Below the pieces are notes generated by a model. It did not search any database and was not told the origin of the DNA. It saw nothing but the letters and a program-made list of their open reading frames with translations. DNA of 64,000 nt from Bacillota bacterium (GTDB lineage: Bacteria; Bacillota; Negativicutes; JBAXTZ01), in the NCBI GenBank assembly GCA_037129925.1, contig JBAXTZ010000001.1, positions 25,155 to 89,154 of the forward strand, written 5' to 3'. This document shows, piece after piece, positions 961-59,527 of the stretch (within the stretch, counting starts at the first letter, position 1; each line of letters begins with the position of its first letter). The position numbers and the translations under genes were made by a program.

Positions 961-2410
961 TTATTTCTTGTTCGCTTTCCAGGCATCGACCTGGTGCTGC
1001 ATTTCAGCGAGATATTTTTCCAGTCCGCCAGCTTTAAGTTTGGCGACGAATTCCGGTACCGCGATTTCGGGATCGACGCTGCCGCGCTTGATAGTTTTCA
1101 CGTATTGTTCGACAATATTTTTTATATTGGACACTTCGTTAGTTACCGGACCGAGGTCGGGAATAAAGCCAAAGTCAGTCGCGACAATCGCGGATTTGTC
1201 TGCCGCCATGATCTTCTGCCACTTGTCTTCCGGCACGCCTTCCATTACCGGTAGCAGACACTTGAAGCCAAACAACCAATCCGGTAGCGTGTAGTCACCG
1301 CCCATCGGCTTAATTGTATTCGAGCTGATTTTAGTATAATGAACACCTTCAATGCCGTCACACAGTAAGGTCATCAAATATTTATCGGTATACAACAGAT
1401 TGATGAATTTCATTGCCGCTTCTGGATGTTCGCTTTGCGCGTTGATTGCCATCATTTCGCCCAAAGCAACCTCCGTTGATTTGGCGACCGGTTTCGGGAA
1501 TACCGGTACGGATACAAATTGCATTTTACCAGCAGCGCTCCAGTCCTGATTACTGAATATTCCCAGAGTATCCACTGTACAGAAAACCTTGCCATTGCGC
1601 ACCAAATCACCGCCTGGACGGTCAGTTTCGCCTTTGAAGGTATAACCCTTTTGATACAACATCCTGAACTTTTTCAACGTATTCATGTAAGCCGGGTCTT
1701 CATACTGGTTGATAACCTTGCAGTTTTTGTCATCCACGCGGATTACGCCCGGGAAATCCGAGTCGACGATGAAATCGTATTTGTCGCGATCGTCCATCCA
1801 CCAATAGTTATCAATGGAAACCATTTGCGGATAATCTATTTTAACCTTGTCAAATAGCGGGAACAAATCTTCGACCCGCTTGACGCCGCTCAAGTCAAAA
1901 CCGTATTTATCAATCTTGGCTTTATCGAAATAATACCCTTGCCAATATCCGGCGCCGTTATAGACCGGAACTGCAAAAATTTCGTTACCGATTTTGGTCG
2001 CCTCAATATATTGCGGCATATTGTCGAGACATTTGCTGACACCCGCGCCTTCTTTGGGCAACAAGTCATTTAGCGGATAAAAAAAACCTTTGCGGGCATA
2101 ACGCGGATAATTCAGCATCCAAAAGCTGGTAAAACAAATATCCCATTTCTCGCCAGCCATTGTCGCGCTCTCGATTTTGGTCTGATACGAGTCCCACGGC
2201 AACAGTTTCAACTCCACCGTACAGTTGATTTTTTCTTTGGTGTACTCATTAACTTTAGCCATAACCTTGTCGAAATCCTTCGGCTTGTCACCCATCAGAT
2301 ACCAGACCAATTTCACCGGTTCACCGTTATCGGCGTTGTTGCTGCCGCAGCCAGATAACAGCGCTGTCAGAAAACAGACTAACAGCAGTAACGTAACTAT
2401 TTTTCGCATT
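961..2410 (-). CDS. ABC transporter extracellular solute-binding protein (family 1), lipoprotein
   Basis: The 514 aa ORF has an internal Met, MRKIVTLLLLVCFLTALLSGCGS, with a lipobox signal peptide and a GGAGGGAGAA RBS immediately upstream, so the likely start is 2410. The overall composition is typical of sugar-binding SBPs. No permease partner lies adjacent. Confidence 0.7.
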
Positions 2411-2666
2411 TTCTCCCTCCTCGCGATTTCACTACAGTTATTATAGCGGCAACCAAGACAATATTCAATATTTAACGACCCGCCTTCGTTTTCGTGTTCA
2501 CTCATTTTGCAACTTAGGGGCGAGAGACTTCTTACTCGAGCAGGTTAATGCGTTATTTTAGCACATACATTATCGGCTATCAGCTGCGTGTAACATCCTC
2601 ACGCCATCGCGCTATTTCGAAGCTGCATTACTAAATATACAACATTCTAAATCAATACCGCACGCA

Positions 2667-9241: not shown

Positions 9242-10591
9242 TCAATTCAGATATTTTTTCAACAAATTCGGCAAACAGCCAATCAATCCCAGCGGAATGT
9301 TCAAAACGCCGCCATTTAGGACAAGATTTCTTTGCGATGTCCGTAGCGCTACTATCGGTGAATACTTATCCCGATATACCTGCAAACTTTTGGAACGGAC
9401 ATTTTCTGCCGCTTTCACTTCCAAAGGCAAAATCAGTTCCTGATATTGAAAGATAAAATCAACCTCAGCCGTATTACCAGATGTCCAGTAGTACGGAACG
9501 ATATCCTGCGCGATTAACTGTTGTAGCACGAAATTTTCGGTCAGCGGACCGGTAAATAGCGAAAACATCGGCGAACCTTCTAACAACATTCTGGCAGTAA
9601 CTCCGGTTTTTCTGCGTAACAAACCAACATCCGGAAGATGCAGTTTAAAAAATCTACTGTTAGCATAGGCGTTCAAAGGGAATTGCGGAAGGTCGATCCG
9701 CTCGACTTTGTGCGCCAAGCCAGCACTGACAATCCATTCCAGAGCCGTTTCATATTCACGGGCTCTGGCGCCTTCTTTAACCATGCCGAATACAAATTTG
9801 CCGTTTTCTTTCGCCAATTGTTCGGGAATGGAATTCCAAACTCGCTGAATTCGCGGCACGATTTCGGCAGGCGCATGTTTGGAAAAATCACGCTCATACG
9901 CAAGCAAAATTGCCGCCAACACTTTTTCGGTCTCTTCAACATCCTTACTCACCAGCCAACAGCCAACCGCCTCCGGCATTCCGCCGCACAATAGATAATT
10001 TTGTCGCAGGTCAGTAATTTTTTCAAAAATCGCCAAGGGAATTTCTTCGGCGGCGATGATTTGGTCAAGATATTCACCCAACATGCTTTCACCGGCTGAC
10101 TCAATATATTCTCTGAAACTTAGTGGATGCATCGTGAGAAAGTCCACCTTGCCAACCGGAAACGAACCGGGTTGTGACAGCGTCACGCCCAGCAACGAAC
10201 CGGCACAGACAATATGATATTCCGGCGCTTTCTCACAAAAATATTTTAGCGAATTTAGCGCATCGTTACATTCCTGGATTTCATCAAAAATCACCAGCGT
10301 GTTTTCCGGCACAATTTTCTTGCCATGCAACACGCTCAACGCATGCAGTAATCGCTCCGGATTCTTATCGCGCGCGAAGAGCGCCTGTAAACTCTTGTTC
10401 TCGTCAAAATTAAAGTAGGCGCAATCCGCGTACTCGCTCTCGCCGAATTCCTTTAAAGAATATGTTTTTCCGACCTGCCTGATACCCTGCAGTATTAAAG
10501 GTTTTCTGCGCGGCGACTGTTTCCAGTTTTTCAGTTGGCGATTTATTTTTCTAATTAACACAAGCTTCACCTCATCAACATCCGTCGCCAT
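9242..10591 (-). CDS. AAA family ATPase with DUF4143-type C-terminal domain (intact cassette copy)
   Basis: 467 aa ORF with Walker A GIRQVGKTYS and Walker B VIFDEIQE. The likely start is MATDVD at 10591, since a GTG/Met further upstream lacks an RBS. The 3' end and 5' leader are repeated at 6325-6700 and 21727-21972. Confidence 0.75.
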   Translation of the reverse strand: MATDVDEVKLVLIRKINRQLKNWKQSPRRKPLILQGIRQVGKTYSLKEFGESEYADCAYFNFDENKSLQALFARDKNPERLLHALSVLHGKKIVPENTLVIFDEIQECNDALNSLKYFCEKAPEYHIVCAGSLLGVTLSQPGSFPVGKVDFLTMHPLSFREYIESAGESMLGEYLDQIIAAEEIPLAIFEKITDLRQNYLLCGGMPEAVGCWLVSKDVEETEKVLAAILLAYERDFSKHAPAEIVPRIQRVWNSIPEQLAKENGKFVFGMVKEGARAREYETALEWIVSAGLAHKVERIDLPQFPLNAYANSRFFKLHLPDVGLLRRKTGVTARMLLEGSPMFSLFTGPLTENFVLQQLIAQDIVPYYWTSGNTAEVDFIFQYQELILPLEVKAAENVRSKSLQVYRDKYSPIVALRTSQRNLVLNGGVLNIPLGLIGCLPNLLKKYLN

Positions 10592-10705
10592 AATTTTACC
10601 ATACTTTTTGCAACGATTCACATTTTTGATATGAATTATGTGCAACGCTCACACATTTTTGATACGTAAAAGGTGTATTTAATCATTATTGAATGTTTTT
10701 CATCG
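10592..10705 (-). promoter_or_regulatory. conserved 5' leader of the ATPase cassette with a tandem 32-nt direct repeat
   Basis: 10609-10640 (tgcaacgattcacatttttgatatgaattatg) and 10641-10672 (tgcaacgctcacacatttttgatacgtaaaag) are tandem direct repeats. On the coding strand they carry cataat and ttgcaa hexamers upstream of the ATG. The same leader is present at 6645-6700 and 21870-21972. Confidence 0.45.
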
Positions 10706-41760: not shown

Positions 41761-41781
41761 TTGCCCTCACTTAAACTATAT

Positions 41782-42402: not shown

Positions 42403-43467
42403 TCACTCATCACACCCACCCTCGCGTCGTAGCTCCAGTCGGGTCTTAGCCTCGACCATCGCCTTATGCAGTTTGGCTTGCAGTATCTCTTTGGGCGGTA
42501 GCTTCAACCAGTACTCACCGATATGAATATTGTCTGGTTCCAGATCCATCAGCTCAACAACTTCGGCATCTTTACCGCCACAAAGGATTATGGCGATGGG
42601 GGATAGTTCGCCAGATTGTTGTTCATGTTTAGCAAGCCATTTAAGATACAACTCCACTTGACCTTTGTAATCAGGTTTGAAGTCGCCAAGTTTAAGTTCT
42701 ATGAGCACTAGTCGTTTAAGCTTGCGATGATAAAAGAGCAGGTCAAGGTAATAGTCGTTGACCCCAATTTGGATGCGCTTCTGACGCCCCATGAAGGCAA
42801 AATCGCTACCCAGCTCAAGAATGAACCGCTCTAATTCTAGTAGAATTGCGTTCTCGAGATCTTTTTCGGTGAAGTTATCTTTGAGATCGAGAAAGTCTAG
42901 TAGATAGGGGTCTTTCAGAAACAGTGTAGGGCTAGCGTCGACTGGCTGCCGCTGTAGTAGCTTTAACTCTTGGAGTATAAGCGCATCTGGCTGTTTGGAG
43001 ATAGCTGTTCTTTCAAATAGCATACTGTCCATACGCTCACGCAGAGTGCGCACAGACCAGCGGCCATCTGTTGCCATCCGGATATAAAACTCGCGTTTGA
43101 TGGCATCATCAGTCTTGATAATTTCCACAAAATGCGACCAACTCAATTGTGCCGACACTGTCGTCACAATTTCAACGTCGGGAAACAGTTGATAGAATTT
43201 TGCCATCCTAAAAAGGTTGCGTTTGCCAAATCCATATCCGTATTCCGCTACTAGCTTCTCGGCTAATATATCCATTGCAGCAGCACCATATTCCGCACGG
43301 CCACCGCCGAGCACTTCTGCCGTAATGGTCTTACCAATGTGCCAATAAGTCAGAGCTAGTGTCTGATTCACTTGAGTAACTACATGCATCCTAGCGGATT
43401 CAATCAACTGTCGGATGTCATGATAGAGCCTGTCAGTCACAGCACCGTGTTCTTTGTTTTGGATCAT
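42403..43467 (-). CDS. DUF1016/YhcG-family PD-(D/E)XK nuclease domain protein
   Basis: 354 aa with an N-terminal DUF1016-like region and C-terminal [24 protein letters not shown] core. Confidence 0.7.
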
Positions 43468-43880
43468 ATCTTCACCTTCGTCAGACTCTCAGCAATCAAG
43501 ACATTCAGCCGCGCTTCTTCCACCAGCTGCTCTTCGAACTCCGCTTTCAGCGCCGCAAACCGTTCCTTAAAATCAAAATCATCTTCCTCGTCCGGCAATC
43601 CGACAACGCTGCGTGGCGTGTAGAACGGTCCGCCATTTTTCCCTTCTGCAAGTGCAAACTCGCCGAGAAAATACTCAAATACATGTCCGAGCACATCAGC
43701 GCTGCGGGCTTTGGCATCACCCAACGCGATATTGCCAACCAGATCAATCAGTCCGCCCAGACTTGCCGGATCCAAATTACTGCAGGCAAATACTTTTGGC
43801 AAAACATCTTTCAGCGACGGATTGTCTTTTTCAATCGGTTCTGTTTTTGCTACACCGTCACTCTTTTTTGCCATTAGCAT
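43464..43880 (-). pseudogene. type I restriction-modification methyltransferase (hsdM) remnant with a large internal deletion
   Basis: 138 aa ORF carrying the HsdM N-terminal motifs [31 protein letters not shown], followed directly by an HsdM-like acidic C-terminal tail ([20 protein letters not shown]...). The whole catalytic core (NPPF region) is absent. Confidence 0.55.
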
Positions 43881-44044
43881 CTCCGTTCATTATTTTGCTT
43901 ACTATTCAATGGGCTAATTAATTAAAACCCAAAAACCAAAAAGTATGGTTAATATATTCGCCACGCAATAATAATCCTGCACGCCCGGTAAACAAAAAAA
44001 CAGCAACAAAAATTTACCCGCCGCAAAATATGCGTCAACCTAAA

Positions 44045-45360: not shown

Positions 45361-48300
45361 TTATTTAGTCAACTTAATAGTAAATATTTCAAACGGCTGC
45401 AAGTCAATCGTAAGCTCACCGTTGGCGATTGTTAGAATTCTAAGGTCATTCCACTCCATTAAATCGGTTTCGCAAGCTTCGGCGAAACTTGGCGCTGCCA
45501 ACTTCACTATTGTCTTCTTGCCATACGGTTCGTAAATACGCACGATAATAGCCTTTGATTTTTCGGCTTTTTTAACGACTTCAACAATCGCTTCGCCGCT
45601 CATTAGCCGAACTGCGGAATCAAACTCAACCTTACCCGGTAACACCCGGGCTTTTTGGTTGAGTTGCGCTGCTTCGGCAATTACTGACGAGTCGTCCAGA
45701 TTTTCATTATGCGGCAATAACGCGTAATGGAACTGATGCTGGCCAATATCGGCTTCCGGGTCGGGATTGTTTGGCGCCCGCAACAAGCTCAGTTCAATTT
45801 TGTTCTCGTGGATACGATGGCCGTACTTGCAGTCATTTATCAAGGCGACACCGTAATCTTTGTTTGCCAAATCGACCCAGCGATGACCGCATACTTCAAA
45901 CTGGGCGTATTCCCAGGAGGTATTATCATGCGTCGCCCGCTGGACATTGCCATATTGAATTTCGAAAGTAGCTTGTTCAGTTTCAACCGCCACTTCAAAT
46001 TCCACTTTGAGCAATTTGTGTTTTTCCTGCCAGTCGGCGAGCGTACAGAATTCCAAGCGTTTGGAGTTGCCTTGCAACATCACATATTGCGTTAAAGTAG
46101 AATTTCCTACCACAAAATCCAACTGGGCGACTTTGGCGATATAGCTATCGGAAAGTATAGTTATTGCCTGGCAATGAGCGGTGTCGCGCTGCTGGCGCTC
46201 ATAATACCTGTCAATATCCCAGGCATCCCAGTCCGCCGGAAAATCTACATAGAGATTGAGGACATTGCCGCGCATTCCCTGCGGGATAAAGGCGTAGTCG
46301 GCTTGCTTATCATAACCATATACTACTTGACCATCTGCCTCGATGTCGTAACGCACGAGGGCGTTTTCGAATACTAGCGGAGTTCTGGCGGTTGGCGGTT
46401 GGCTGTTAGCGGCTGGCGGGCTACCAGCGGCTAGCGGGCTACCAGCGGCTAGCGGGCTACCAGCGGCTAGCGGCTGGCGGCTTGCAGCTGCCGCGCCTTT
46501 ATACAACGTAATAGCGCTCAACCCGGGGATAGTTGGCATTACATAAACGAATTGCGAACATTCGGCTGATTCTAGCTGCGTTCCGTCAGCAGTCAGGACG
46601 GCGTGCCCTTTCCAGCTGCCCGGCAAGGTGACTTCACGCGTGTAGGCGCTCGATAGTGTGTTAATAACGGTTACACAATCTTCATTATTATCCGAAGCAA
46701 GCTTTATGAACCGCTCGATTAGCTCCTGGCATTTTTCCAGCATCCGCGCGTAATCACGGCGACTGTCGACATAGACCCGGTTAACGCTGGAGCCGGGAAT
46801 AATATCATGGAATTGGTTCATCAGCACTTCTTTCCAAAGCGCATCCAGTTCGGCTTGCGGATAGTTATCAACCGGCAACGCCGAATACAGCGCCTCTAAC
46901 TCGCGCAAGTTCAATTCCATAGTGCGGTTCATCTTCTTGTTAAACGCCTGTGTGGTCAAAGTACCGCGATGCAGTTCCAAATATAACTCACCGCGCCAGT
47001 AATCCAGCTCAGCGGCGCTTTCGTCGAGCCGGTCGAGCATTTTCTGGGCGCTGTCAAAACGAACCTTCGGCGTGCCTTCGAGATTCCGCATCCTCAAGCC
47101 CCGTTCGATGAACTCCTCGCGCGGTCCACCGCCACCGTCACCGATGCCAAACAGCGTCAAGAAGTTATCGACCACCGCTTTTTCCTGGAAATTTTCCTCG
47201 GCGTACATCAACCGGTCGGCTTTTAGAGCGCTGTTATAGGTATCTTCGGGCGGGAAATGAGTGAGGACGCTTGAGCCATCGATGCCCTGCCAGAAAAAGG
47301 TATGATGAGGAAATTTGTTAAACTGGTTCCAACTGATTTTTTGGGTGACGAAATAATCGACACCGGCTTTTTTCAAAATCTGCGGTAACGCCGCGCTATA
47401 GCCAAATACGTCCGGCAACCACAGATTGCGGACATTTACGCCAAATTCATCCATGAAATAGTTTTTGCCATGCAGAACTTGCCGCACCAGCGATTCGCCG
47501 CCAGACAGGTTGCAGTCGGCTTCGACCCACATCGCGCCCTGAACTTCCCATTTGCGGTCGCGAATTTTGTCTTTGATGCGACTATATAATTTCGGATAGT
47601 TTTCCTTGGTCATCGCGTAGTGCTGGGCTTGGGAAGCGCCAAAGATATATTCCGGATACTTATCGTTTAGCATAACTTGCGCCGAAAAAGTCCGCGCGCA
47701 TTTACGGATAGTCTCTTCATACGGCCACAGCCAAGCAGTATCGATGTGCGCGTGACCAACACACCAGGCCGTTAAAGCACTGTCGTTGGCGCGTTTTTCC
47801 AGTTCCGGACGGAGCAAATCGCGGCATTTACGGATGGTTTCCGGGTCGAATTCCAGAATATCAATCGCGTTATTTAGCGCGTGCAGAATCCGGTCGCGAC
47901 GGACTGATTTCGCCGGTAACGCCTGTGACAGCGCGAACAACGTTTCAATGTCGAGATGCAGCGACCAAATATCCTTCCGCCAAATCGCCAAGCTTAACTT
48001 ATCGACTGTGGCTTTATGGTGTCCAAGTTTAGTCGGAATATCGCCGCTGACATACGGGTCAACATTAATCCCATACATCAACGAAACTGATGCTTCAAGC
48101 CAAAGCTCGACCGCTTCGCCGCCAGCAGAACGCTCAAACAATTCTACCCGCTCGCGTTTGATACTCTGATCCCATTCCGAATAAGCGGTAATACAAGTGA
48201 ACGGCATTCCCTCAGTATCAAAAACCGTGCCTTCAGCGCAAATGTGTAGCAGCGCCACCACGTGTTGATTTTTCCATGCTGCCGGAACAACTCCTTGTAA

Positions 48301-48528
48301 ATGAAACCAGGCATGATCCCAGGATTTGCCAAAATTTTCGCCCCAGGTGTCACCAGCAGCAACCGGACTATAGTCGCCGGTTAATCGGTTGTCGAACGCA
48401 ACAATTCCATCGCCAAAATTACAGACCTCTGCCTGTAACGGTCGGGCATCCTCGTAAAAATGGCGCTCCAAATAGCCCAAAATCTTTGTCACTCGTTTTT
48501 CATGCAGTTCACGTGACCTTCTAATCAT
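45361..48528 (-). CDS. glycoside hydrolase family 38 alpha-mannosidase
   Basis: 1055 aa with the GH38 N-terminal catalytic-domain pattern (HAHIDTAWLW...) and a central and C-terminal beta-sandwich. Carries an in-frame low-complexity insert, (PLAAGS)n. Confidence 0.85.
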   Translation of the reverse strand: MIRRSRELHEKRVTKILGYLERHFYEDARPLQAEVCNFGDGIVAFDNRLTGDYSPVAAGDTWGENFGKSWDHAWFHLQGVVPAAWKNQHVVALLHICAEGTVFDTEGMPFTCITAYSEWDQSIKRERVELFERSAGGEAVELWLEASVSLMYGINVDPYVSGDIPTKLGHHKATVDKLSLAIWRKDIWSLHLDIETLFALSQALPAKSVRRDRILHALNNAIDILEFDPETIRKCRDLLRPELEKRANDSALTAWCVGHAHIDTAWLWPYEETIRKCARTFSAQVMLNDKYPEYIFGASQAQHYAMTKENYPKLYSRIKDKIRDRKWEVQGAMWVEADCNLSGGESLVRQVLHGKNYFMDEFGVNVRNLWLPDVFGYSAALPQILKKAGVDYFVTQKISWNQFNKFPHHTFFWQGIDGSSVLTHFPPEDTYNSALKADRLMYAEENFQEKAVVDNFLTLFGIGDGGGGPREEFIERGLRMRNLEGTPKVRFDSAQKMLDRLDESAAELDYWRGELYLELHRGTLTTQAFNKKMNRTMELNLRELEALYSALPVDNYPQAELDALWKEVLMNQFHDIIPGSSVNRVYVDSRRDYARMLEKCQELIERFIKLASDNNEDCVTVINTLSSAYTREVTLPGSWKGHAVLTADGTQLESAECSQFVYVMPTIPGLSAITLYKGAAAASRQPLAAGSPLAAGSPLAAGSPPAANSQPPTARTPLVFENALVRYDIEADGQVVYGYDKQADYAFIPQGMRGNVLNLYVDFPADWDAWDIDRYYERQQRDTAHCQAITILSDSYIAKVAQLDFVVGNSTLTQYVMLQGNSKRLEFCTLADWQEKHKLLKVEFEVAVETEQATFEIQYGNVQRATHDNTSWEYAQFEVCGHRWVDLANKDYGVALINDCKYGHRIHENKIELSLLRAPNNPDPEADIGQHQFHYALLPHNENLDDSSVIAEAAQLNQKARVLPGKVEFDSAVRLMSGEAIVEVVKKAEKSKAIIVRIYEPYGKKTIVKLAAPSFAEACETDLMEWNDLRILTIANGELTIDLQPFEIFTIKLTK
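46385..46494. repeat. 7-nt-period CTGGCGG-type repeat plus 3 x 18-nt tandem repeat, in-frame inside the GH38 gene
   Basis: Heptads CTGGCGG, TTGGCGG, TTGGCTG, TTAGCGG, CTGGCGG. Then three perfect copies of gctaccagcggctagcgg. Then CTGGCGG, CTTGCAG, CTGCCGC. The related heptad array is at 57772-57841. Confidence 0.65.
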
Positions 48529-48696
48529 TTTCGCTCCTATTTATTGTTTTATTCGAAATTCGCGGACAAAATAATTGTGAATATTATACACTATTTTTAG
48601 CGGGATAGGCATAGCCATTATCAAATTATGGCACTTGCTTTGCTTCTTCTATTAGTGAATGGTTTCCACATCAAAATAGTGGACCAACTGAAATTG

Positions 48697-48724
48697 AAAA
48701 ACGGCGCCAATTAAGGCACCGTTT
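48697..48724 (-). terminator. rho-independent terminator of the PTS EIIC gene
   Basis: Minus strand reads AACGGUGCC, a 6-nt loop, GGCGCCGUU, then a U-run. The stem is 9 bp with one G-U pair. Confidence 0.55.
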
Positions 48725-48780
48725 GATTAACTTTTACTCCACCGACCATACAATAATAGTCGTCACCGTTTCAAAATCAA

Positions 48781-50061
48781 CTAGTCTTTTTGTCGATTAA
48801 TCGCCGCGACAAACGGCAAATAAATAACTATCGAAATTGCCAGATTGACGATTGCCAACACGGCGCCAGAGATATGGCCGCCAGTTGCCAGATAACCGCC
48901 GAACCCGACCGGCGTTACCCATGGCACCGTTGCCACTATCGGGAATACCAATCCGGATTGAATCGCTAAATACGAAACCGTTGCCGTTATCAGCGGCGTT
49001 ATGATAAACGGTAGCACCAGCATCGGGTTTAGCACTATCGGCGTGCCAAAAATAACCGGTTCGTTAATTTGAAACACACCCGGTGCAATTGCCAATTCGG
49101 CAATCTCGCGTTGTTTTTTTGAAGCTAGAAATATCGCAATCAAGAATCCCAGCGTACAACCAGCGCCACCCATGTACACAAATACATCGAGGAAACTGCC
49201 GGCAAAGACGTGGTACTTGGACAAATCGGTAACACCGGCGGCATACAGGTTAGTGTTTTCCACACCCAGCAACGTGGTTATCGGCGTGATAATCCCGCCG
49301 AAAATATTCGAACCGTGCAAACCAAAAAACCAGAACAGATGCACAAAAAATACAATCGTCAATACTGCCGGCAGGCTGTCCGCCATACCGCTAAACGGTT
49401 TTACCAGTACTTCGTTAATCCACTCGTTAAAATAAATCCCGTTGGTACCAAGATTAGAGCGGAAAATCATCCCTGCTAGCGCAAAAATAAAGATGGTCAT
49501 CATTCCCGGTAGCAACTTGGCAAACGCCCGCGCTACCGCCGGCGGCACGCCGTCTGGCATTTTTATCGTTAACTTCTTTATTTTGGACAAGCGGATAAAA
49601 ATTTCTGTGGCTACCAAGCCGACAAACATCGCCGTAAATAGCGCAGTTGCGCTAAACGAGCCCCAGCTGACCAATCCCCAGCCCTCTTTTGTGCCTTGCG
49701 GAATCAACACAAAAAAACAAGCCGCGGCGATAACCATCGCCTCGCGTCCGTCATCGCCATAAGACTTCGCCAAGTTGAAGGCAATGCCAAACAGCGCAAA
49801 AACTGCCATAAACGCAAATGTTCCCCACCAAATATCCAAGCCGAGCGTTTTCCAAGCCTCACCAAATAATGTTTTGGCTAAGGCATCGTAACCCGGAATT
49901 ACCGGTCCAAGATTGCAGAGCAATACCGCGAACGAACCAATCATCGTGACCGCGATCATGCTAATCAGCGCATCCCGCACCGCTATCAGATGACGCTGAC
50001 CGCCCACTTTAGCAGCGATTGGCAATAAGTGCAGTTCGATTAAATCCATGAATTTTTGCAT
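48781..50061 (-). CDS. PTS system EIIC component, lactose/cellobiose family
   Basis: MQKFMDLIELHLLPIAAKVGGQRHLIAVRDAL... N-terminus characteristic of CelB-type EIIC, with about 10 TM helices. No EIIA or EIIB gene is adjacent. Confidence 0.8.
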   Translation of the reverse strand: MQKFMDLIELHLLPIAAKVGGQRHLIAVRDALISMIAVTMIGSFAVLLCNLGPVIPGYDALAKTLFGEAWKTLGLDIWWGTFAFMAVFALFGIAFNLAKSYGDDGREAMVIAAACFFVLIPQGTKEGWGLVSWGSFSATALFTAMFVGLVATEIFIRLSKIKKLTIKMPDGVPPAVARAFAKLLPGMMTIFIFALAGMIFRSNLGTNGIYFNEWINEVLVKPFSGMADSLPAVLTIVFFVHLFWFFGLHGSNIFGGIITPITTLLGVENTNLYAAGVTDLSKYHVFAGSFLDVFVYMGGAGCTLGFLIAIFLASKKQREIAELAIAPGVFQINEPVIFGTPIVLNPMLVLPFIITPLITATVSYLAIQSGLVFPIVATVPWVTPVGFGGYLATGGHISGAVLAIVNLAISIVIYLPFVAAINRQKD

Positions 50062-50099
50062 TACTATTCTCACTTTCAATGATGTTTAATGGGAGAAAA

Positions 50100-50200
50100 G
50101 TGAAAAGTGAAAGGTGAAGTAGTTATCCCCCACCAACCTTTCACCTTGTACCTTTAACCTTTAGCTTTTATCATTTATCTTTTAACCATTAACTTTGAAC
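50100..50200 (-). terminator. hairpin with tandem GTGAAAA repeats downstream of the purine permease gene
   Basis: An 8-bp stem (gtgaaagg / cctttcac) with a 22-nt loop, followed on the minus strand by the T-rich ttttcacttttc. Also carries gtgaaaa direct repeats upstream of the EIIC gene. Confidence 0.35.
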
Positions 50201-50203
50201 CTT

Positions 50204-51499
50204 TTACTGATAAATAAACTGAATTACAAACAGCACCGCGAAGAAATACAGTATCGGACTGACGGTTTTGCCTTTACCGGTTGCCAAGCGTAGCACCACG
50301 TATGTGATGATACCCATACCAACGCCGTTGGCAACGCTATAACTAAGCGGAATGCCAACCAATGTCACAAAAGCGGCAATTGATTCTTCCATTGACTTGC
50401 CCCAGTTGATTTCGGCGATACTTAGGGTCATGAAGTAGGCTACCAACAACAAGGCTGGAGCCGTTATTGCTGGAACCGATGCTACTGCCATCGCCAATGG
50501 CTGAAAGAACAAGCAGGCTAGGAAGAAAATCGCCGCGAAGATTGATGTCAATCCAGTACGACCACCAGCAGCAATACCGGCGCCGGATTCGACATATACC
50601 GCCGACGGGCTAGTACCAAGTATTCCGGCAAATATTGACATAACTGAGTCCGACAAAAATGCCGGCTTGGCGCGTTCAATCTTGCCGTCTTTTAACAATT
50701 TTGCTTGGGTACATAATCCAAGCAACGTTCCGGTCGTATCAAACAACAGGATTAGCAGCAATACCAATACGCTGAAAATTACCTGTAAATTGGCAAAAGC
50801 CGAAAAGTCCAGTTGCATGAAGGTCGTGGCAAAACCACGCGGTATGTCAATAATGCTTGCCGGCAACACCAGCACGCCCACACCCCATGACATTGCGGCA
50901 GTTGCGATCATACCAATGAATATCGCACCGGGAATGTTGCGCACCAACAGTATTGCGGTAATAAGAAAGCCGAACATCGTCAAATATACAGTCGGTGAGT
51001 GCAGGTTGCCAAGACCGACAATCGTACCGGCATCGCCGACGATAACCTTGGCAGCTGACAAGCCGATGATACCGATAAATAAGCCCAATCCGGCAACAAT
51101 CGCGTGTTTAAGATTGTCCGGAATGGCATCAATAAGCTTAGTTCGAATTTGCGACATCGAAATCAAGGTAAACAGGATGCCGGTTACAAAAATAACCGCC
51201 ATACCGGCTTGCCAGGTGATTTTTTGTTTCAAGACAATCGAGAACACGAAGAAGGCTAACGTACCCATACCCGGTGCAATCGCCATCGGATAGTTACTAG
51301 ACATACCGATGAGCGCTGTGCCAAATGCGGCAATCAAAATCGTTGCCAAATAACTGCCTTCAATCGGCATCCCCGTCATATGCAACAAATTTGGTACCAC
51401 AACCAGAACATAGCACATTGAAACGAAAGTGGTCAGACCGGCGACTAATTCGCGACCAGTTGTCGTTCCATGGGCTTTTAATTTAAAAAATTTGTCCAT
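50204..51499 (-). CDS. NCS2/AzgA family purine (adenine/guanine/hypoxanthine) permease
   Basis: MDKFFKLKAHGTTTGRELVAGLTTF N-terminus diagnostic of the AzgA/PbuG/GhxP group, 431 aa. Confidence 0.8.
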   Translation of the reverse strand: MDKFFKLKAHGTTTGRELVAGLTTFVSMCYVLVVVPNLLHMTGMPIEGSYLATILIAAFGTALIGMSSNYPMAIAPGMGTLAFFVFSIVLKQKITWQAGMAVIFVTGILFTLISMSQIRTKLIDAIPDNLKHAIVAGLGLFIGIIGLSAAKVIVGDAGTIVGLGNLHSPTVYLTMFGFLITAILLVRNIPGAIFIGMIATAAMSWGVGVLVLPASIIDIPRGFATTFMQLDFSAFANLQVIFSVLVLLLILLFDTTGTLLGLCTQAKLLKDGKIERAKPAFLSDSVMSIFAGILGTSPSAVYVESGAGIAAGGRTGLTSIFAAIFFLACLFFQPLAMAVASVPAITAPALLLVAYFMTLSIAEINWGKSMEESIAAFVTLVGIPLSYSVANGVGMGIITYVVLRLATGKGKTVSPILYFFAVLFVIQFIYQ

Positions 51500-51710
51500 G
51501 TTTTACTCCTATCAATAAATTTACTAGCGTATTATACATAAACACTCCACTATCCGCAAGTAAAAATCCTTAATATAGTTTTAATACAAAATAGAAAAAG
51601 TTTGGCATCCAGTTTGTTGACGAATCGTATCTGCCATAGCAGGAATTTTCGCTCGTTTGGCGAATAACTACTATATAATTGCCAACCTAATAAATTTTTC
51701 GGGAGGTTCC

Positions 51711-53471
51711 ATGAAGACTATCCGCTTAATCGCTCTGTCCTTGATATTCGCGTTACTCTTTTCACTGCCATTGTACGCCGCCGGTGATTTGCAAAATAGC
51801 GTTGTCGCCAGTGTAGTTACAAACAATATTCAGTCTGACGCTACAGTTACCGTTCTCACCACAACCGATGTTCACGGTTTTGTTTATCCTTACGACTACA
51901 ACACCAATCAGGCCATCGACAACAGCTTGGCGGAAGCCTACACTATTATCCAAAGCGAACAAACTACTTACAAGAACAACCTGTTACTGGACGCCGGCGA
52001 TACGTTACAAGGCACGCCGCTAGCCTCGTTTTATAATTCTATCGACACGTCCTGGCAAACGCACCCGCTGTTTGCCGTCTATGATTTGATGCATTACGAT
52101 GCTGTGTGTATCGGCAATCACGATTTTAATTTTGGCAAGAAGTTGCTCGAGAAAGCCCGTAGCGGTCTGCGCACCCCGTTGCTTGGCGCGAACATTATCG
52201 ATAGCAAAACCAAGACCACTTGGAATCAAGTAGCGCCATATATTATTAAACGCTTCGAAACTCCAAAAGGCGTTATCACTGTTGCCGTAATCGGCACGGT
52301 AACTCCGGCAATTCCCAACTGGGAAAACCCCGGCAATTATGCCGGATTAACCTTTGTCGATCAAGTCCCGGCGGCACGCGCAGTTATCGACAAACTAAAG
52401 GGCAAGGTTGATGCGTTTATCCTGCTTAGCCATTCCGGCGTTGAAATCAATGGCGCTGAAACCATCGCCACTGAAAACGAAATTGTCCGCTTGACCGCCG
52501 CTTGCCCGGAGGCAGCGTTGATAATCGGCGGACACAAACATCAAATTTGGGATGAATCCAAAACCATTACCGATTTGAACAAGCAACCACTCTATATTAA
52601 TTCCATTGTTAACGGCGTTCCTTATCTGTCGCCGGGGATGTTTGGAAAATTTGTCGGCGAAGCCCGGCTGGGGTTCGACAAAACCGCTAGCGGCTGGAAA
52701 GTGGTCAGCGTCAACACCAAAAACATTCCCGTTAGCGGCGTCGCACCGGACAAAAAAATAGTAGCATTCATTCAACCCTATCACGATAAGGTCATGAAAT
52801 ATCTAAACGCCTCAATCGGCGATGCCGCAACGACTTTTCCGCCTTGTGACTTTACTGCCGACAATCCGCTGGTGCGGTTAATTAACCAATCAATGATGTA
52901 TTATGGCAAAGCCGACCTGTCATCGTCGGCAAATTTTAACAAGGCTGCCACTATCCCCAAAGGGGCAATAACCCGTAACAGTATGTACTCGCTATATGTT
53001 TATGAAAATTACCTCTACACCATCAAAATTACTGGCGCCCAGCTAAAAAAATTCCTCGAGTATTCTGCGCGCTATATCAATGCCGCACCGGTCGGTGCAA
53101 CAAGCTTCACAGTCGGTGGTCCGGCAAATTCGATTCCCAGCTATAACTACGACATTGTTGAAGGTGTGACTTACACTATTAACGCCGCCCGCCCGGTCGG
53201 TCAAAGAATCGAGCAACTAACGTTCAAAAACCGTCCGGTTCAAGCAACCGACACTTTCAGCTTCGCGATGAACAACTATCGCTATAACGGCGGCGGCGGC
53301 TTTATGAATGCCATGGGCTTTGATAACGATCATCCCGCCGAAGTGCTCTATGATTCCCAAAAACAACTCGGCGATGAAGGTCAGATTCGCAACTTGATAA
53401 TGAACTACATAATATTAAAAAAAGTTATCACTCCGCAATATGAAGCCAATCCGCAAATAGCGGCACGTTAA
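51711..53471 (+). CDS. secreted bifunctional metallophosphatase/5'-nucleotidase (UshA-like)
   Basis: Signal peptide, DVHG and GNHDFN metallophosphatase motifs, and a C-terminal 5'-nucleotidase domain. GGGAGG RBS before the ATG at 51711. Confidence 0.8.
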   Translation: MKTIRLIALSLIFALLFSLPLYAAGDLQNSVVASVVTNNIQSDATVTVLTTTDVHGFVYPYDYNTNQAIDNSLAEAYTIIQSEQTTYKNNLLLDAGDTLQGTPLASFYNSIDTSWQTHPLFAVYDLMHYDAVCIGNHDFNFGKKLLEKARSGLRTPLLGANIIDSKTKTTWNQVAPYIIKRFETPKGVITVAVIGTVTPAIPNWENPGNYAGLTFVDQVPAARAVIDKLKGKVDAFILLSHSGVEINGAETIATENEIVRLTAACPEAALIIGGHKHQIWDESKTITDLNKQPLYINSIVNGVPYLSPGMFGKFVGEARLGFDKTASGWKVVSVNTKNIPVSGVAPDKKIVAFIQPYHDKVMKYLNASIGDAATTFPPCDFTADNPLVRLINQSMMYYGKADLSSSANFNKAATIPKGAITRNSMYSLYVYENYLYTIKITGAQLKKFLEYSARYINAAPVGATSFTVGGPANSIPSYNYDIVEGVTYTINAARPVGQRIEQLTFKNRPVQATDTFSFAMNNYRYNGGGGFMNAMGFDNDHPAEVLYDSQKQLGDEGQIRNLIMNYIILKKVITPQYEANPQIAAR

Positions 53472-53547
53472 ATAGTTCAATTACGTCTGATTTTCGTCCT
53501 TTTTCGGTTGAGCTGTAAAATATATGCTGTGTTTGTTTAGTAATTAT

Positions 53548-53560
53548 GATATAATTAGCA
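53548..53560 (+). promoter_or_regulatory. candidate extended -10 promoter for the NMO-like gene
   Basis: tatgatataatt (TGnTATAAT-like), about 55 nt upstream of an AAGGAG RBS and the ATG at 53612. Confidence 0.35.
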
Positions 53561-53611
53561 ATATTTTTTCAGAGACATACGATATTTTATAGAAAACTTT
53601 AAGGAGCCACA

Positions 53612-54703
53612 ATGACCACCAACATCTTCAAGGAATTGAAAATCGGAAATTTAACAGCCAGAATGCCAATAATTCAAGGCGGAATGGGCATCGGCGTGTC
53701 GTTGTCCGGACTGGCCGCTGCTGTTGCTAACGAGGGCGGCATCGGCATTATCGCCGCCGCCGGTATCGGCACTCCGGAAAGCGACTATTCGACAAATTGG
53801 TTTGAAGCCAATAGCCGGGCGTTGAAACGCGAGATTGCCAAGGCTCGCGAATTATCCAAAGGTATCATCGGTGTAAACATTATGGTGGCGCTGACTGATT
53901 ATGCCGGTCTTGTCAGAACCGCCATTGCCGAGAAAATTGACATTATTTTTTCCGGCGCCGGTATGCCGTTGGATTTACCATCATATTTGCATGAAGGCGA
54001 CCAAACCAAACTGGTGCCGATCGTTTCTTCAGCGCGTGCCGCCGGGATTATTTGCAAAAAATGGCTAGACAAATTCAATTACCTGCCAGATGCGATTGTT
54101 GTCGAAGGCCCAATGGCCGGCGGGCATCTGGGGTTCAAAGAAGAGCAACTGACCGACCCGAACTTTTCGTTGGAGAAGTTAGTTACTGAGGTAATCAACA
54201 CTGTTAAACCATATATCGATAAGTATCTCAAACCAATTCCGGTCATCGCCGCCGGTGGCATCTATACCGGCGCTGACATACGCCGCTTTTTGCAATTAGG
54301 CGCGGCTGGTGTGCAGATGGCAACCCGCTTTGTCACCACTCTCGAGTGCGACGCGTCGATCAAGTTTAAGCAAGCCTATATCGACGCCAAAAAAGAAGAC
54401 ATTGTCATCATAAAAAGTCCGGTCGGAATGCCCGGTCGCGCTATCCGCAGCCCGTTCACTGAATCCGTCAGTGATGGCAAGAAAATTCCTTATCACTGTT
54501 CCAGCCATTGCCTAAAAACCTGTGACAATGTCAACAGTCCGTATTGCATAACCTGGGCGCTAGTCAGCGCAAAAAAAGGCAACTTCAACCACGGTTTCGC
54601 CTTCGCCGGCGAAAATGCCTATCGCGCGACTGAGATTGTAACAGTCAAACAAGTGATGGACGACCTCAAAACCGAGTACTCGACAGCGTCTGCAGTTAAC
54701 TAA
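53612..54703 (+). CDS. nitronate monooxygenase family protein (FabK-like enoyl-ACP reductase II fold)
   Basis: MPIIQGGMGIGVS FMN-binding N-terminus and a TIM-barrel NMO pattern, 363 aa. Confidence 0.75.
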   Translation: MTTNIFKELKIGNLTARMPIIQGGMGIGVSLSGLAAAVANEGGIGIIAAAGIGTPESDYSTNWFEANSRALKREIAKARELSKGIIGVNIMVALTDYAGLVRTAIAEKIDIIFSGAGMPLDLPSYLHEGDQTKLVPIVSSARAAGIICKKWLDKFNYLPDAIVVEGPMAGGHLGFKEEQLTDPNFSLEKLVTEVINTVKPYIDKYLKPIPVIAAGGIYTGADIRRFLQLGAAGVQMATRFVTTLECDASIKFKQAYIDAKKEDIVIIKSPVGMPGRAIRSPFTESVSDGKKIPYHCSSHCLKTCDNVNSPYCITWALVSAKKGNFNHGFAFAGENAYRATEIVTVKQVMDDLKTEYSTASAVN

Positions 54704-54718
54704 ATAATTCCACAAAAA

Positions 54719-54751
54719 TAACGCCCTGTGTAAACAGGACGTTTTTTTGTG
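54719..54751. terminator. bidirectional hairpin terminator between convergent genes
   Basis: aacgccctgt / acaggacgtt stem with one mismatch and a 4-nt loop, followed by a T7 run. An A-run precedes it. Confidence 0.5.
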
Positions 54752-54756
54752 CGCTA

Positions 54757-56061
54757 CTATTTTTTATGAGTCATAATATCCAGGATTACCTCATCAGTCA
54801 CTTGCATTCCCAGCTGCGAAAGTTCACCGATGTTGCGGATTGTCGCTTCGACATCACAACCGACAATGCCGTCACCGTCGTGCAGGGCGTGGCGATTCTG
54901 CGCGAGCATCGCCCCGTCAAAAGCTGAGTAAACACCGGTGGCAATCTTCATAGCGCACGAGGCTTTAGCGCCGTCACAAATCATTCCGGCGATGTTTCCC
55001 AGAGTATTCACAACCGCGTTGGACACCGTCGCCAAATCTTCCCCGTCCAATAATGCAATAGCACCGCTCACTGCCGCCGAAGCACAAACAACGCCGCAAT
55101 GTGCCGATAGCCGTCCAACGTTCGTCTTGATGTGTACCGTCGCCAGATGCGAAAAAAACAATGCTCGAATGAGGTGCTCGCGATCAATGTTTTTCTCATG
55201 ACAGTATTTTATCAACGGCAACGATGCCGCCATTCCTTGATTGCCGCTACCGCTAGTCGTCATTACCGGTAGCGGACAGCCGCTCATACGGGCATCGCTA
55301 CCGGCAGCAGCAAAACTCGCGCAAACATTTTTACGATCGTAGCCATATACACCATCTTTGATACTCTTAATGATGCAACTGCCCAAGTTTACGCCCCAAA
55401 TTTCCCTTAGCCCCTCTTCGGCAATTGCGCTGTTGAGCGTGATAACTTTTTCAAACAACGGACGAATGAGTTCAAAATCAATGTTTTTTGCCAGATTATA
55501 GATAAGCTCGATACTAAGGAATTTGCGGTCGGTGAGCGCTGAATTGAAATCAGCATCGGTGCAGATCCGGTTGATAAGCACTTTATCATCCTTGCAGATT
55601 TTGGTAATATTGGTGTGCAGATGTTTTACTTCAACGCTGGCGCTATGACCGCCACCGCTCAGCTCCACGCGAATATAGAGTTTGATATCCGTTGGCTCAA
55701 GATGAACTTCAACGGTTCCGGTTTCCAAAAACTTCACAACATTGGCAAGCGCTTCCGGGGTAACATCCTGAATAACCATCAACTGTTTTTCAGGTTTACC
55801 TGCAATCGCGCCCATTGCCGCCGAAACTTCGATTCCCACCCTGCCGCCGCTTTTCGGCACAACCACACTTTTGACATTTTTGACAATGTTTCCGGATACA
55901 TATATTTTCATCACTTCCGGCACACAACCGAGAACCTCGCGGGCTTTTGCGGCTACATAGGCCAGGGCTATCGGCTCGGTGCAGCCTTCAGCCGGAACTA
56001 TTTCTTCGTCAAGTATCGCCAATATCTTCGCGATAACGTCTTTAGCAAATTCCATAATCAC
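54757..56061 (-). CDS. UPF0597/serine-dehydratase-like family protein (L-cysteine desulfidase-like)
   Basis: 434 aa with the CTEPIA motif near the N-terminus and a size matching YhaM/CdsB. Confidence 0.6.
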   Translation of the reverse strand: MIMEFAKDVIAKILAILDEEIVPAEGCTEPIALAYVAAKAREVLGCVPEVMKIYVSGNIVKNVKSVVVPKSGGRVGIEVSAAMGAIAGKPEKQLMVIQDVTPEALANVVKFLETGTVEVHLEPTDIKLYIRVELSGGGHSASVEVKHLHTNITKICKDDKVLINRICTDADFNSALTDRKFLSIELIYNLAKNIDFELIRPLFEKVITLNSAIAEEGLREIWGVNLGSCIIKSIKDGVYGYDRKNVCASFAAAGSDARMSGCPLPVMTTSGSGNQGMAASLPLIKYCHEKNIDREHLIRALFFSHLATVHIKTNVGRLSAHCGVVCASAAVSGAIALLDGEDLATVSNAVVNTLGNIAGMICDGAKASCAMKIATGVYSAFDGAMLAQNRHALHDGDGIVGCDVEATIRNIGELSQLGMQVTDEVILDIMTHKK

Positions 56062-56066
56062 TTCTC

Positions 56067-57059
56067 CTAATTAAATAGCATCAAAATAACTTTATGAATG
56101 ATACCGCCAATTACCGCCGTGAGCGGTATCGTGAGAAACCAGGCTTGCACCATCGTTTGACCGATGCCCCAGTTTACTGCCTTGATGCGCTGCGTTGAAC
56201 CCACGCCCATAATCGAACCTGCCACCACATGGGTAGTACTGACCGGCAAATGCAAGAGTGTGGCGCTCATAATCGTTATGGAAGAATTCAAATCTGCGGC
56301 AAAACCGCTTAACGGTGTTAACTTGTAGATTTTGCCACCCATCGTTTTTATGATGCGCCAGCCGCCGGTTGCCGTGCCAAAAGCCATCGCCGCGGCGCAG
56401 CATATTTTTACCCATAATGGAACATCCAGAGTTTCTAATTGTCCGGCACTCAGAAGCGCCAGAGTAATGATTCCCATGGCTTTTTGAGCATCATTGGCGC
56501 CATGTGAAAATGACATAATAGCTGCTGCGCAAACTTGCAATGGCTTAAACGTCGAGTTTATTTTCCCAGGCGACATTTTCCCGAAAAACAGCCGTAGCAA
56601 CTTCATTATGATTACACCCAATATTCCGCCGATAATCGGCGAAGCGATGAGCGCGACAAAGATAGTAAGCACCCCGACAATTTTCAAACCAGAAAAACCG
56701 TGTGAAACCAACACCGCGCCAATCAATCCGCCAATTATGGCATGCGATGAACTGCTCGGAATACCATAATACCAGGTAACCAAATTCCAGACAATCGCGG
56801 CAACGAGCGCGGCAATAATCGTCTGGGAGTCCACCATTTTTACCGAGCTCACAATATCGCCGCCAATAGTTTTGGCAACACCGGTAAAGCTCAGCGCCCC
56901 GATAAAATTAAACGCCGCCGACATCCAGACTGCCCGCCGCGGTGACAATGCCCGCGTCGAAACCGAAGTGGCAATAGCGTTTGCAGTATCGTGAAAACCA
57001 TTAATATAATCAAACGCCAACGCTAGAAAAACCAATACAATCAACAGCGCATCATGCAT
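56067..57059 (-). CDS. inorganic phosphate transporter, PiT family
   Basis: GFHDTANAIATSV and GANDAQKAMG signature repeats. Confidence 0.85.
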   Translation of the reverse strand: MHDALLIVLVFLALAFDYINGFHDTANAIATSVSTRALSPRRAVWMSAAFNFIGALSFTGVAKTIGGDIVSSVKMVDSQTIIAALVAAIVWNLVTWYYGIPSSSSHAIIGGLIGAVLVSHGFSGLKIVGVLTIFVALIASPIIGGILGVIIMKLLRLFFGKMSPGKINSTFKPLQVCAAAIMSFSHGANDAQKAMGIITLALLSAGQLETLDVPLWVKICCAAAMAFGTATGGWRIIKTMGGKIYKLTPLSGFAADLNSSITIMSATLLHLPVSTTHVVAGSIMGVGSTQRIKAVNWGIGQTMVQAWFLTIPLTAVIGGIIHKVILMLFN

Positions 57060-57702
57060 ATTTCATCACAACGCCACGAAATAGTTCAGCGATTTTCTCG
57101 CAATGATTTAACATTGATTCCAACTTCACCAACACGTCACGGAATTTGATCAATTCCACGCTGCTCATAGTATTCTTGTCATTATCTGCCAAGTCGAACA
57201 ACTTGGCGATTTCCCGATAATACAACTTGTCGCTCATGTCCTCTAATGCCACGATTTTTACAGCATGATCCAACAACTGTTGCTTGTTGGAACGCACCGA
57301 CTTGAGCCACTCCATCGATTTAACTATTTCATAGGTACATTGCTCAAGAAATCCGGCCATTTGCTGGATGCCCTCGGAGACTTTGACAAATTTATAACAG
57401 ACCATCAATTCAATCAAGTTTTCGTGCATATCAACCAATTCTTCAACCATATTAGTCAATGAATAGATGTCTTCACGGTCAATGGGCGTAATGAAAGTTT
57501 GATTTAAATGATCGATGATTTCTTTGTAAACCTCATCAGTCGACTCCTCGATATGAAACATCCGTTTTTCATTATCCAACGAAACTGTACCCTCGTTCAT
57601 AATCACATTCAGCAAAACCGATGCCTCGTTTGCTTTCATGCTGACTTTAAGCAACATGCCGAAAAACGGATCTTCCTTTTTTTTAAAAAAACCAAACATC
57701 AA
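57052..57702 (-). CDS. DUF47 (PhoU-like) family protein paired with PiT
   Basis: 216 aa helical protein overlapping the pit start by 8 nt, the typical DUF47-PiT arrangement. Confidence 0.75.
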   Translation of the reverse strand: MMFGFFKKKEDPFFGMLLKVSMKANEASVLLNVIMNEGTVSLDNEKRMFHIEESTDEVYKEIIDHLNQTFITPIDREDIYSLTNMVEELVDMHENLIELMVCYKFVKVSEGIQQMAGFLEQCTYEIVKSMEWLKSVRSNKQQLLDHAVKIVALEDMSDKLYYREIAKLFDLADNDKNTMSSVELIKFRDVLVKLESMLNHCEKIAELFRGVVMKYA

Positions 57703-57771
57703 TTAACCTCATCGCAAATATTTGAACCCAAAATCATTTTAGCACGCGGATGACTAATTATCAAATAGAAA

Positions 57772-57841
57772 CTGGCGGTCGGCGGCTGGTAGCTGGTGGC
57801 TAGTGGCTGGTAGCTGGCTACTATCAGCTAGCGGCTAATAA
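57772..57841. repeat. array of ten 7-nt-period repeats (CTGGCGG/CTGGTAG type) in a divergent promoter region
   Basis: CTGGCGG, TCGGCGG, CTGGTAG, CTGGTGG, CTAGTGG, CTGGTAG, CTGGCTA, CTATCAG, CTAGCGG, CTAATAA. Lies between the DUF47-pit operon on the minus strand and the ABC ATPase gene on the plus strand. Confidence 0.65.
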
Positions 57842-57880
57842 TGTTATAATTGCACAATATTTGTGTAAGGAACTTGATTT

Positions 57881-59454: not shown

Positions 59455-59527
59455 CTAACGGCATTAGCCTTGCGCCAAAATTATCATTACACCGCATACT
59501 TGCTTTTTAAATCAATAGCTAAAACGC

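Follow-up and report, generated by a model that had tools for sequence, protein, structure and literature searches.

Degenerate heptanucleotide repeats at three sites in an uncultured Bacillota genome, one of them in-frame in an alpha-mannosidase gene

How does a tandem repeat with a unit of seven bases, a length that does not fit the codon, come to lie inside the intact reading frame of an enzyme gene, and how does a repeat of the same family come to fill the space between two divergent promoters nearby? This question is raised by a stretch of 64,000 nucleotides (contig JBAXTZ010000001.1, positions 25,155 to 89,154, here called the window) from a host whose nearest named relatives are metagenome-assembled genomes (MAGs) of Bacillota/Negativicutes. 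An initial annotation of the window had described CTGGCGG-type repeats at two places, array A (46385-46494) within a gene for a GH38 alpha-mannosidase and array B (Table 1) between a DUF47-pit operon and an ABC exporter. Both are real, as seen in their unit lists, in the output of the tandem-repeat program TRF and in a consensus scan, and a third array, C (50095-50204), with a different unit (GAAAAGT/AACCTTT), was detected by TRF and by a lag scan. I consider it likely that all three are 7-base microsatellites that arose by replication slippage in little-constrained DNA and are now decaying, with selection for the reading frame shaping the one that is translated.

Seven is the dominant tandem period in the window, and the period-7 statistics of the host given here cover these 64 kb. 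The sequence was compared with itself at lags 2 to 24 (threshold at least 22 of 28 self-matches), and 30 locally shuffled copies of the window served as control. Lag 7 yields three loci, which are A, B and C, lags 14 and 18 yield one of those same loci each, and the remaining lags yield no tandem loci in the 64 kb, while the shuffled copies have none at any lag. Exact runs show the same preference, with six at lag 7 versus none or one at the other lags, and TRF reports period 7 at all three arrays. For pairs of adjacent YTRGYRG heptads, allowing one mismatch at most, the window gives 23 matches versus 1.9 +/- 1.4 in dinucleotide shuffles; A and B contain 18 of the 23, and all but three of these are on the + strand. 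As lag 7 alone stands out and the units are unrelated, the window has a general tendency towards 7-nt tandem repeats with at least two unit families, rather than a single repeated sequence family. The arrays thus have the marks of heptanucleotide simple-sequence repeats (SSRs): head-to-tail copies of 7 nt, an excess over chance and over other periods in the 64 kb, and change between species. The suggestion that they are SSRs is supported, tandem period 7 being found by both TRF and the lag scan. None of the three holds three perfect heptads in a row.

Array A lies in an open reading frame (ORF) that matches the full set of GH38 Pfam domains (Glyco_hydro_38N, Alpha-mann_mid, Glyco_hydro_38C and Glyco_hydro38C2), and the protein is full-length with respect to 120 homologues, with many invariant columns among 11 aligned sequences. 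The array consists of five heptads, followed by three perfect copies of an 18-nt unit (beginning at 46419, 46437 and 46455), followed by four heptads, in the order that had been described. By TRF, the 18-mer tract has period 18, 3.7 copies and 97% matches, and the perfect tract measures 58 nt; the longest perfect run at lag 7 in the array is 18 nt. The translation is free of stops (...GAAAASRQPLAAGSPLAAGSPLAAGSPPAANSQPPTARTP...) and the frame is intact across the array, also in agreement with the initial annotation. Since 7 is not a multiple of 3 and the frame is under selection, array A is punctuated by short phase-correcting pieces of 3-4 nt (AGTT, G and CGG in the window, TTT in the sister species introduced below).

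What the array would encode is a loop. The linker at this position is the one region that varies in length and sequence in all homologues of the 11-sequence alignment, and the alignment with the solved Ams1-type mannosidase 7ufr covers residues 51-607 and 719-1054 of the GH38 protein, leaving the region between unaligned. An AlphaFold model (AF2) places residues 682-716 between confidently modelled strands, without secondary structure and with a predicted local distance difference test (pLDDT) score below 50, although the model as a whole is mediocre (mean pLDDT 67, built on the 11-sequence alignment). I propose that array A encodes a disordered loop on the surface of the enzyme, between two of its beta-sandwich parts. 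The so-called insert is most probably a loop that derives from a microsatellite, rather than a domain, a phase switch or a mobile element.

In the sister species (L001, ENA assembly GROS21-1), whose GH38 protein is 87% identical and whose contig is syntenic with the window, the same site holds on the same strand a shorter array, ...CTGACAG TTGGCGG TTT CTGGCGG CTGGCAG TCGGCGG CTGACGG CTGGTGG CTGGCGC, and the locus has 5 consensus double-heptads versus 0.8 expected. Both ends of array A align with, and are orthologous to, the ends of this shorter array, while the window has 57 additional nt in the middle, which are essentially the block of 18-mers. The peptide differs (SHQPSAADCQPPETANCQP in the sister species versus AAASRQPLAAGSPLAAGS...PPAANSQPPTARTP in the window), whereas the heptad consensus of the DNA is kept, as are its strand and its site, which supports the earlier view that the insert is a feature of the DNA and not of the protein. 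A linker selected as a peptide repeat is not what is seen, with the DNA consensus conserved and the peptide not, and with the three 18-mers identical at the DNA level. In GH38 orthologues at 67-68% identity or less, the linker is short, of ordinary sequence and devoid of heptads; the alignment of orthologues that had been suggested as a check thus finds the insert to be lineage-specific. At site B, one relative (contigs L127-L129, ABC protein 85% identical) has only a proto-array of three heptads, CGGCGAT TGGCGGT CGGTCAC, and another (L126, ABC protein 90% identical) has no heptads at that site. Site C is occupied in the sister species by a canonical intrinsic terminator in place of the array. 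Altogether, in about 77 kb of relatives, an array of the lag-7 type was found in GH38 only. The orthologous ends of A and the proto-array at site B argue against the notion, also raised at first, of a small repeat element that had landed in frame. The arrays appear instead to have grown in place from short seeds, with turnover between species.

A separate difference from the sister species is a segment of about 2.7 kb (41297-44044) that is present in the window and absent from the syntenic contig. It contains a gene for a YhcG/DUF1016 PDDEXK nuclease (42403..43467, - strand) and an ORF of 138 aa that matches only profile positions 1-36 of N6_Mtase; the latter looks like the remnant of a restriction-modification or mobile module.

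Within the species, contigs with 99.3-100% identity to the window were recovered from NCBI (GCA_964573965.1), Logan (SRR12676973) and two ENA assemblies. Array B is base-for-base identical in the three contigs that contain it (L123, L124 and L125), and so is array C in its two (L130 and L131), with no change of length in either. Some of these contigs have single-nucleotide polymorphisms near B or C (12 in 1660 nt in L125), and none of these is inside the arrays. To judge by these sequences, B and C are stable within the species. The perfect period-7 runs of the three arrays, 13-18 nt long, amount to fewer than three units, and together with the identity of B and C in the contigs recovered this does not support the expectation of slippage-prone arrays with variable copy number. 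Array A is covered less completely. The Logan contig L132 begins inside the 18-mer tract and reproduces the gene-distal half of A together with at least 1.7 of the 18-mers, and L130 ends short of the array. The break is explained by the perfect 18-mer tract of 58 nt, which exceeds the k-mer of the assembler (k = 31). This tract is also the only remaining site at which, from its sequence, a length change that keeps the frame is plausible. Exact look-ups found neither the full-length GH38 protein of the window nor the product of ORF 961..2505 on record in the assembly collection, and a protein query with a 241-aa fragment around the GH38 repeat gave no matches, the low-complexity words having probably filled the candidate list.

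Two further observations concern the DUF47 gene next to array B. One of the same-species contigs (L124, GCA_964573965.1) is one base short at the equivalent of window position 57307, so that DUF47 is called as two pieces (81 aa and 146 aa), owing either to a genuine frameshift or to a fault of the assembly. A T8A8 pair of homopolymers (57680-57695, ccttttttttaaaaaaaacc) falls within the first codons of DUF47 and is identical in the same-species contigs examined.

Array B consists of ten degenerate heptads, CTGGCGG TCGGCGG CTGGTAG CTGGTGG CTAGTGG CTGGTAG CTGGCTA CTATCAG CTAGCGG CTAATAA. Six of these agree fully with YTRGYRG, two more deviate from it at one position and the other two at two positions, so that the eight matches counted in the initial annotation stand if one mismatch is allowed and not as exact matches. 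The longest perfect run at lag 7 is 13 nt. The neighbours, PhoU_div(DUF47) and PHO4(Pit) on the - strand and an ABC ATPase with an ABC-2 permease on the + strand, are as described, according to their Pfam assignments. On the Pit side, the array is separated by 8 nt from the -35 hexamer of a predicted promoter that is conserved in relatives; on the ABC side it adjoins the predicted extended -10 element TGTTATAAT and covers the -35 position of that promoter. The motif TGnTATAAT is about equally far from the ABC start codon in the window, in L126 and in L127, and a -35 consensus for the ABC promoter is present in none of these three lineages. As the array lies between a predicted -35 and a predicted extended -10, it would be upstream of both transcription start sites, and hence not transcribed. 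It makes the spacer between the Pit and ABC promoters about 36-39 bp longer than in L127. This DNA has no evident sequence requirement and is probably a spacer filler. As a single strand, the 3' part of array B folds with z = -2.9 (3 of 200 shuffles are equally good). The single-strand folds of A, B and C were also considered as a sign of structural elements, a reading that was rejected, as only B is modestly above shuffles. Likewise, Chi-like sites within the arrays (AGCGG, GCTGGTGG) were set aside, as short motifs inside a repeat are no independent evidence.

Array C separates two genes of the - strand: it lies between the stop of the one, for a permease of the xanthine/uracil family, and the start of the other, for a PTS EIIC. 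The array has two arms, the long one roughly inverse in sequence to the short one, with a terminator-like hairpin between them, and its longest perfect run at lag 7 is 18 nt.

Table 1. Positions in the window of the three heptad arrays, their parts and the adjoining genetic features.
Feature	Position	Strand	Remarks
GH38 alpha-mannosidase gene, host of array A	45361..48528	-	1055 aa; Pfam matches
Array A, first heptad block, CTGGCGG TTGGCGG TTGGCTG TTAGCGG CTGGCGG	46385..46419	+ (non-coding)	encodes ...PPAANSQPPTA
Array A, three perfect 18-nt units GGCTACCAGCGGCTAGCG (7+7+4 nt)	46419..46472	+	encode (SPLAAG)x3
Array A, last heptad block, CTAGCGG CTGGCGG CTTGCAG CTGCCGC	46467..46494	+	encodes GAAAASRQP
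Array C, short arm, GAAAAGT x3.4	50095..50118	+	on the transcribed - strand CACTTTT, a T-rich tail after the hairpin
Terminator-like hairpin between the arms of array C	50113..50134	-	scan: 7 pairs, 8-nt loop, tail TTTCACTTTT
Array C, long arm, AACCTTT-type heptads x10	50135..50204	+	TRF: period 7, 10 copies, 71% matches; lag scan agrees
Predicted promoter of DUF47-Pit operon, TTGATA, 17 nt, TAAAAT, upstream TG	57736..57764	-	consensus scan, 10/12 matches
Array B, ten degenerate heptads	57772..57841	+	fills the gap between the divergent promoters
Predicted extended -10 TGTTATAAT of ABC exporter operon	57842..57850	+	inferred from conservation; missed by the two-hexamer scan

Two smaller repeats in the window are reported here for completeness. 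At 9953-9971 the unit CAGCCAA is repeated 2.7 times (TTGGCTG TTGGCTG GGCGG on the - strand, the unit family of array A) inside an ORF for an AAA_14/DUF4143 ATPase (9242..10645, - strand), where it encodes ...EAVGCWLV...; this could be a heptad repeat of seed size within ordinary coding DNA, or chance. At 59662-59699, downstream of the ABC-2 permease gene and within a gene-free stretch of 731 nt (59455-60185), a repeat of period 14 similar to GGCCGTCGGTCAA is present in 2.8 copies.

Arrays of this unit family are widespread. A search of the genome collection for four consecutive CTRGYRG heptads found at least 120 loci in many phyla; among the matches listed, most are pure arrays of CTAGTGG, CTGGTGG, CTGGCGG or CTGGTAG, and none is from the host genome. 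The flanks of these loci (L003-L122, 837 kb) contain 76 further arrays at lag 7 and 45 at lag 14, with other units, versus at most 16 at any other lag, which indicates that where a genome has one heptad array, further ones with differing units tend to lie close by. About half of the arrays in other bacteria lie in stop-free frames, and they were considered as further coding cases; most of these are upstream of a recognised domain or at the start of the frame, and were discarded. The clear case inside a domain, among the stop-free frames inspected, is a class I tRNA synthetase of a Candidatus Saccharimonadales (L111:835-2877, + strand), in which (CCGCCAG)4 at 1501-1528 encodes residues 222-231 in frame (PF00133 covers residues 23-645). 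Both the unit and the peptide, PPAASRQPPAA, are the same as in the GH38 gene of the window.

Repeats with a period of seven have been described before, and the arrays of the window appear to be a further example of this known class. According to Mrazek, Guo and Shah (2007), as cited in PMC4692102 and PMC4679880, heptanucleotides are the commonest class of long microsatellites in bacteria, and it was suggested that 7 nt corresponds to the length of DNA that the polymerase holds. In the two citing papers, heptanucleotide SSRs (part of the long-SSR class of 5-11 nt) are mostly intergenic, sometimes occur as inverted pairs and vary between close species. The arrays in the window resemble them in that period 7 is dominant, in that they are mostly intergenic and imperfect, in the presence of several unit types in one genome and in variation at the same site between close species, and polymerase slippage is the origin proposed in those papers, as it is here. 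They differ in two respects: the taxa highlighted there are Burkholderia, Xanthomonas, cyanobacteria and actinobacteria, whereas the present host is an uncultured Bacillota/Negativicutes-like MAG, and one array is in-frame inside an enzyme gene. The heptamers of Xanthomonas and Nostoc, GGGAATC and GGGGA(T/C)T, are intergenic, with some inverted pairs able to form hairpins, and occupy the same gene gaps in related species with extensive variation in length and sequence (PMC4692102). Array C resembles such inverted pairs; however, the units in the window are different, their runs of G are only GG, so that they contain no three-tetrad G-quadruplex motif, and the density of repeats in the window is known from 64 kb only. 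In Calothrix PCC 7601, three tandem heptanucleotides have been reported (PMC4692102). Such heptamers of cyanobacteria are known as short tandemly repeated repetitive (STRR) sequences. The arrays of the window, with CTGGCGG-type and AACCTTT/GAAAAGT units and a host related to Bacillota/Negativicutes, are not STRR heptamers. In filamentous cyanobacteria the STRR units are CCCCAGT, TTGGTCA and CAACAGT. Direct repeats of TAACTGA, found in marine Beggiatoaceae, cyanobacteria and some Bacteroidetes, are intergenic and near gene starts, and occasionally lie within ORFs in the stop-free orientation, where they encode repeats of seven residues; the corresponding spacers of close relatives are shorter and without repeats (PMC4679880). 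That family has one dominant, well-conserved unit, found for the most part immediately before start codons, and it has been proposed to act in translation (PMC4679880). The arrays in the window are likewise short sets of direct heptamer repeats near gene starts and in one case in an ORF, but they are built of degenerate units, and array B, being upstream of the promoters, would not be transcribed. Finally, 7-bp tandem repeats in the hmw1A and hmw2A promoters of Haemophilus influenzae set the promoter geometry by their copy number (PMC8262952). Array B is also a 7-bp tandem repeat in a promoter region; however, the hmw tracts are long, perfect and variable between and within strains, whereas B is degenerate and invariant in the same-species contigs.

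How such arrays could have arisen may be outlined as follows. A seed of two or three similar heptads would expand in place by slipped-strand mispairing during replication, for which bacterial replication appears to prefer a register of 7 nt. Expansion would be kept only where the DNA is little constrained, as in the spacer between the divergent promoters (B), the intercistronic spacer (C) and the codons of the GH38 loop (A). Point mutations would then erode the units, leaving fewer than three perfect heptads in each array, and B and C are by now stable within the species. In the GH38 gene, only net changes by multiples of three would survive, which would account for the phase-correcting interruptions of 3-4 nt, and the latest growth would be the triplication of the 18-nt unit (six codons, made up of two heptads and a further 4 nt), by which the loop would have gained about 19 residues rich in P, A, S and G. 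The outcome is probably neutral or of mild effect: the flexible loop of the enzyme is longer, some 36-39 bp are added between the Pit and ABC promoters and, at C, a weaker hairpin with a T-tail built of heptads stands in place of a strong terminator. Of this course of events, growth in place, turnover between species, present stability and the position in little-constrained DNA follow from the comparisons above, while slippage as the mechanism is inferred.

Several points weigh against this interpretation. No allele with another copy number was found that would show slippage itself, and the preference of the replisome for 7 nt is a published hypothesis rather than a demonstrated fact (Mrazek et al. 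2007, as cited in PMC4692102 and PMC4679880). All three arrays fall in a segment of 11.5 kb, whereas the remaining 52 kb of the window and, apart from the GH38 array, about 77 kb of relatives have none, a clustering that could hint at a local or lineage-specific cause beyond plain slippage. A and B have their unit family and strand in common, and independent origins would need similar seeds at both places. As L132 and L130 end at or before array A and the protein is nowhere else on record, the number of 18-mers is known from this assembly only. The mediocre quality of the structural model makes the low confidence of the loop weak evidence for disorder.

Alternatively, the arrays could be functional elements acting in cis, with B serving as a binding array or as structural DNA that tunes the Pit and ABC promoters (in the form of an operator-like palindrome TAGCTG-N8-CAGCTA, or of bent or G-rich DNA), C as a selected attenuator or terminator, and the GH38 insert as a selected flexible linker. 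The position of B, framed precisely by a predicted -35 on one side and an extended -10 on the other, the fold of its 3' part, the hairpin with its heptad-built T-tail where the sister species has a terminator, and the invariance of B and C within the species would all agree with such functions. However, close relatives keep the genes and the promoters without B or C, the palindromic pieces arise from the unit itself (the junction ...TAG|CT... makes AGCT), A and C do not fold in a distinctive way (z = -0.6 and -0.9), and an Rfam search of the whole window matched no family; neutral, decayed repeats would be just as invariant among contigs that are 99.3-100% identical. I regard selected cis-elements as unlikely. 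Contingency loci, in which gain or loss of heptads would at high frequency shift the frame of GH38 and alter the promoter spacing of ABC and Pit, are less likely still. As the unit is not a multiple of three, a change by one unit in A would truncate the enzyme, B lies in a promoter region as do the hmw repeats (PMC8262952), and a k-mer assembly breaks in A. But with no three perfect heptads in any array, such imperfect repeats would slip rarely; the constant length of B and C in all same-species contigs largely refutes phase variation for these two; the sole perfect tract, that of the 18-mers, changes length in-frame; and the assembly break has its explanation in the length of that tract. The neighbouring genes (GH38, PTS EIIC, permeases, Pit/DUF47 and an ABC-2 exporter) serve housekeeping transport and catabolism, and are not surface, antigenic or restriction-modification genes.

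A mobile or recombination-spread element, of which A and B would be copies, one of them inserted in-frame, is a most improbable origin. The two arrays do have the unit family, the strand and a stretch ...GGCTAC-N-CAG..CTAGCGGCT near one end in common (18-19 of 21-23 positions identical, by eye), but an identity of about 18/23 is expected anyway from two YTRGYRG arrays, and the unit of array C is unrelated. A longer similarity between A and B, beyond the consensus, had been considered and was dismissed for the same reason, the shared consensus yielding as much. On reading the flanks, neither inverted termini nor a target duplication nor a non-repeat flank common to both arrays was seen, a dedicated repeat search not having been run. 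The shorter arrays or seeds that relatives have at sites A and B imply that the arrays predate their present forms. That the arrays or their copy numbers are artefacts of assembly is hardly credible, even though short-read assemblies fragment at A and the full-length GH38 protein is on record in no assembly of the collection, since independent assemblies (Logan, NCBI and ENA) agree on every base of B and C, half of A is reproduced in L132, and the reading frame is intact across A. Replication slippage followed by decay thus remains the interpretation that I favour for all three arrays.

Beyond annotation, the significance of these arrays is small. They illustrate how a gene can accommodate a 7-nt repeat that does not fit the codon, by means of phase-correcting pieces of 3-4 nt and a secondary unit of 18 nt, and they call for caution, as such tracts fragment short-read assemblies: the full-length GH38 gene is missing in every other assembly of the species in the collection. 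A further possibility, which I consider doubtful, is that this Bacillota lineage recently gained a raised rate of heptad-repeat genesis, as three arrays of two unit families occur in 64 kb of the host and only the shared GH38 array in the approximately 77 kb of its nearest relatives. If so, this would be an STRR-like, heptad-rich genome outside the known taxa, adding a Bacillota case to the unexplained excess of heptamers, and one in which repeats actively remodel promoters, a terminator and the loop of an enzyme. Such a lineage would be a natural system in which to address the question of the 7-nt register.

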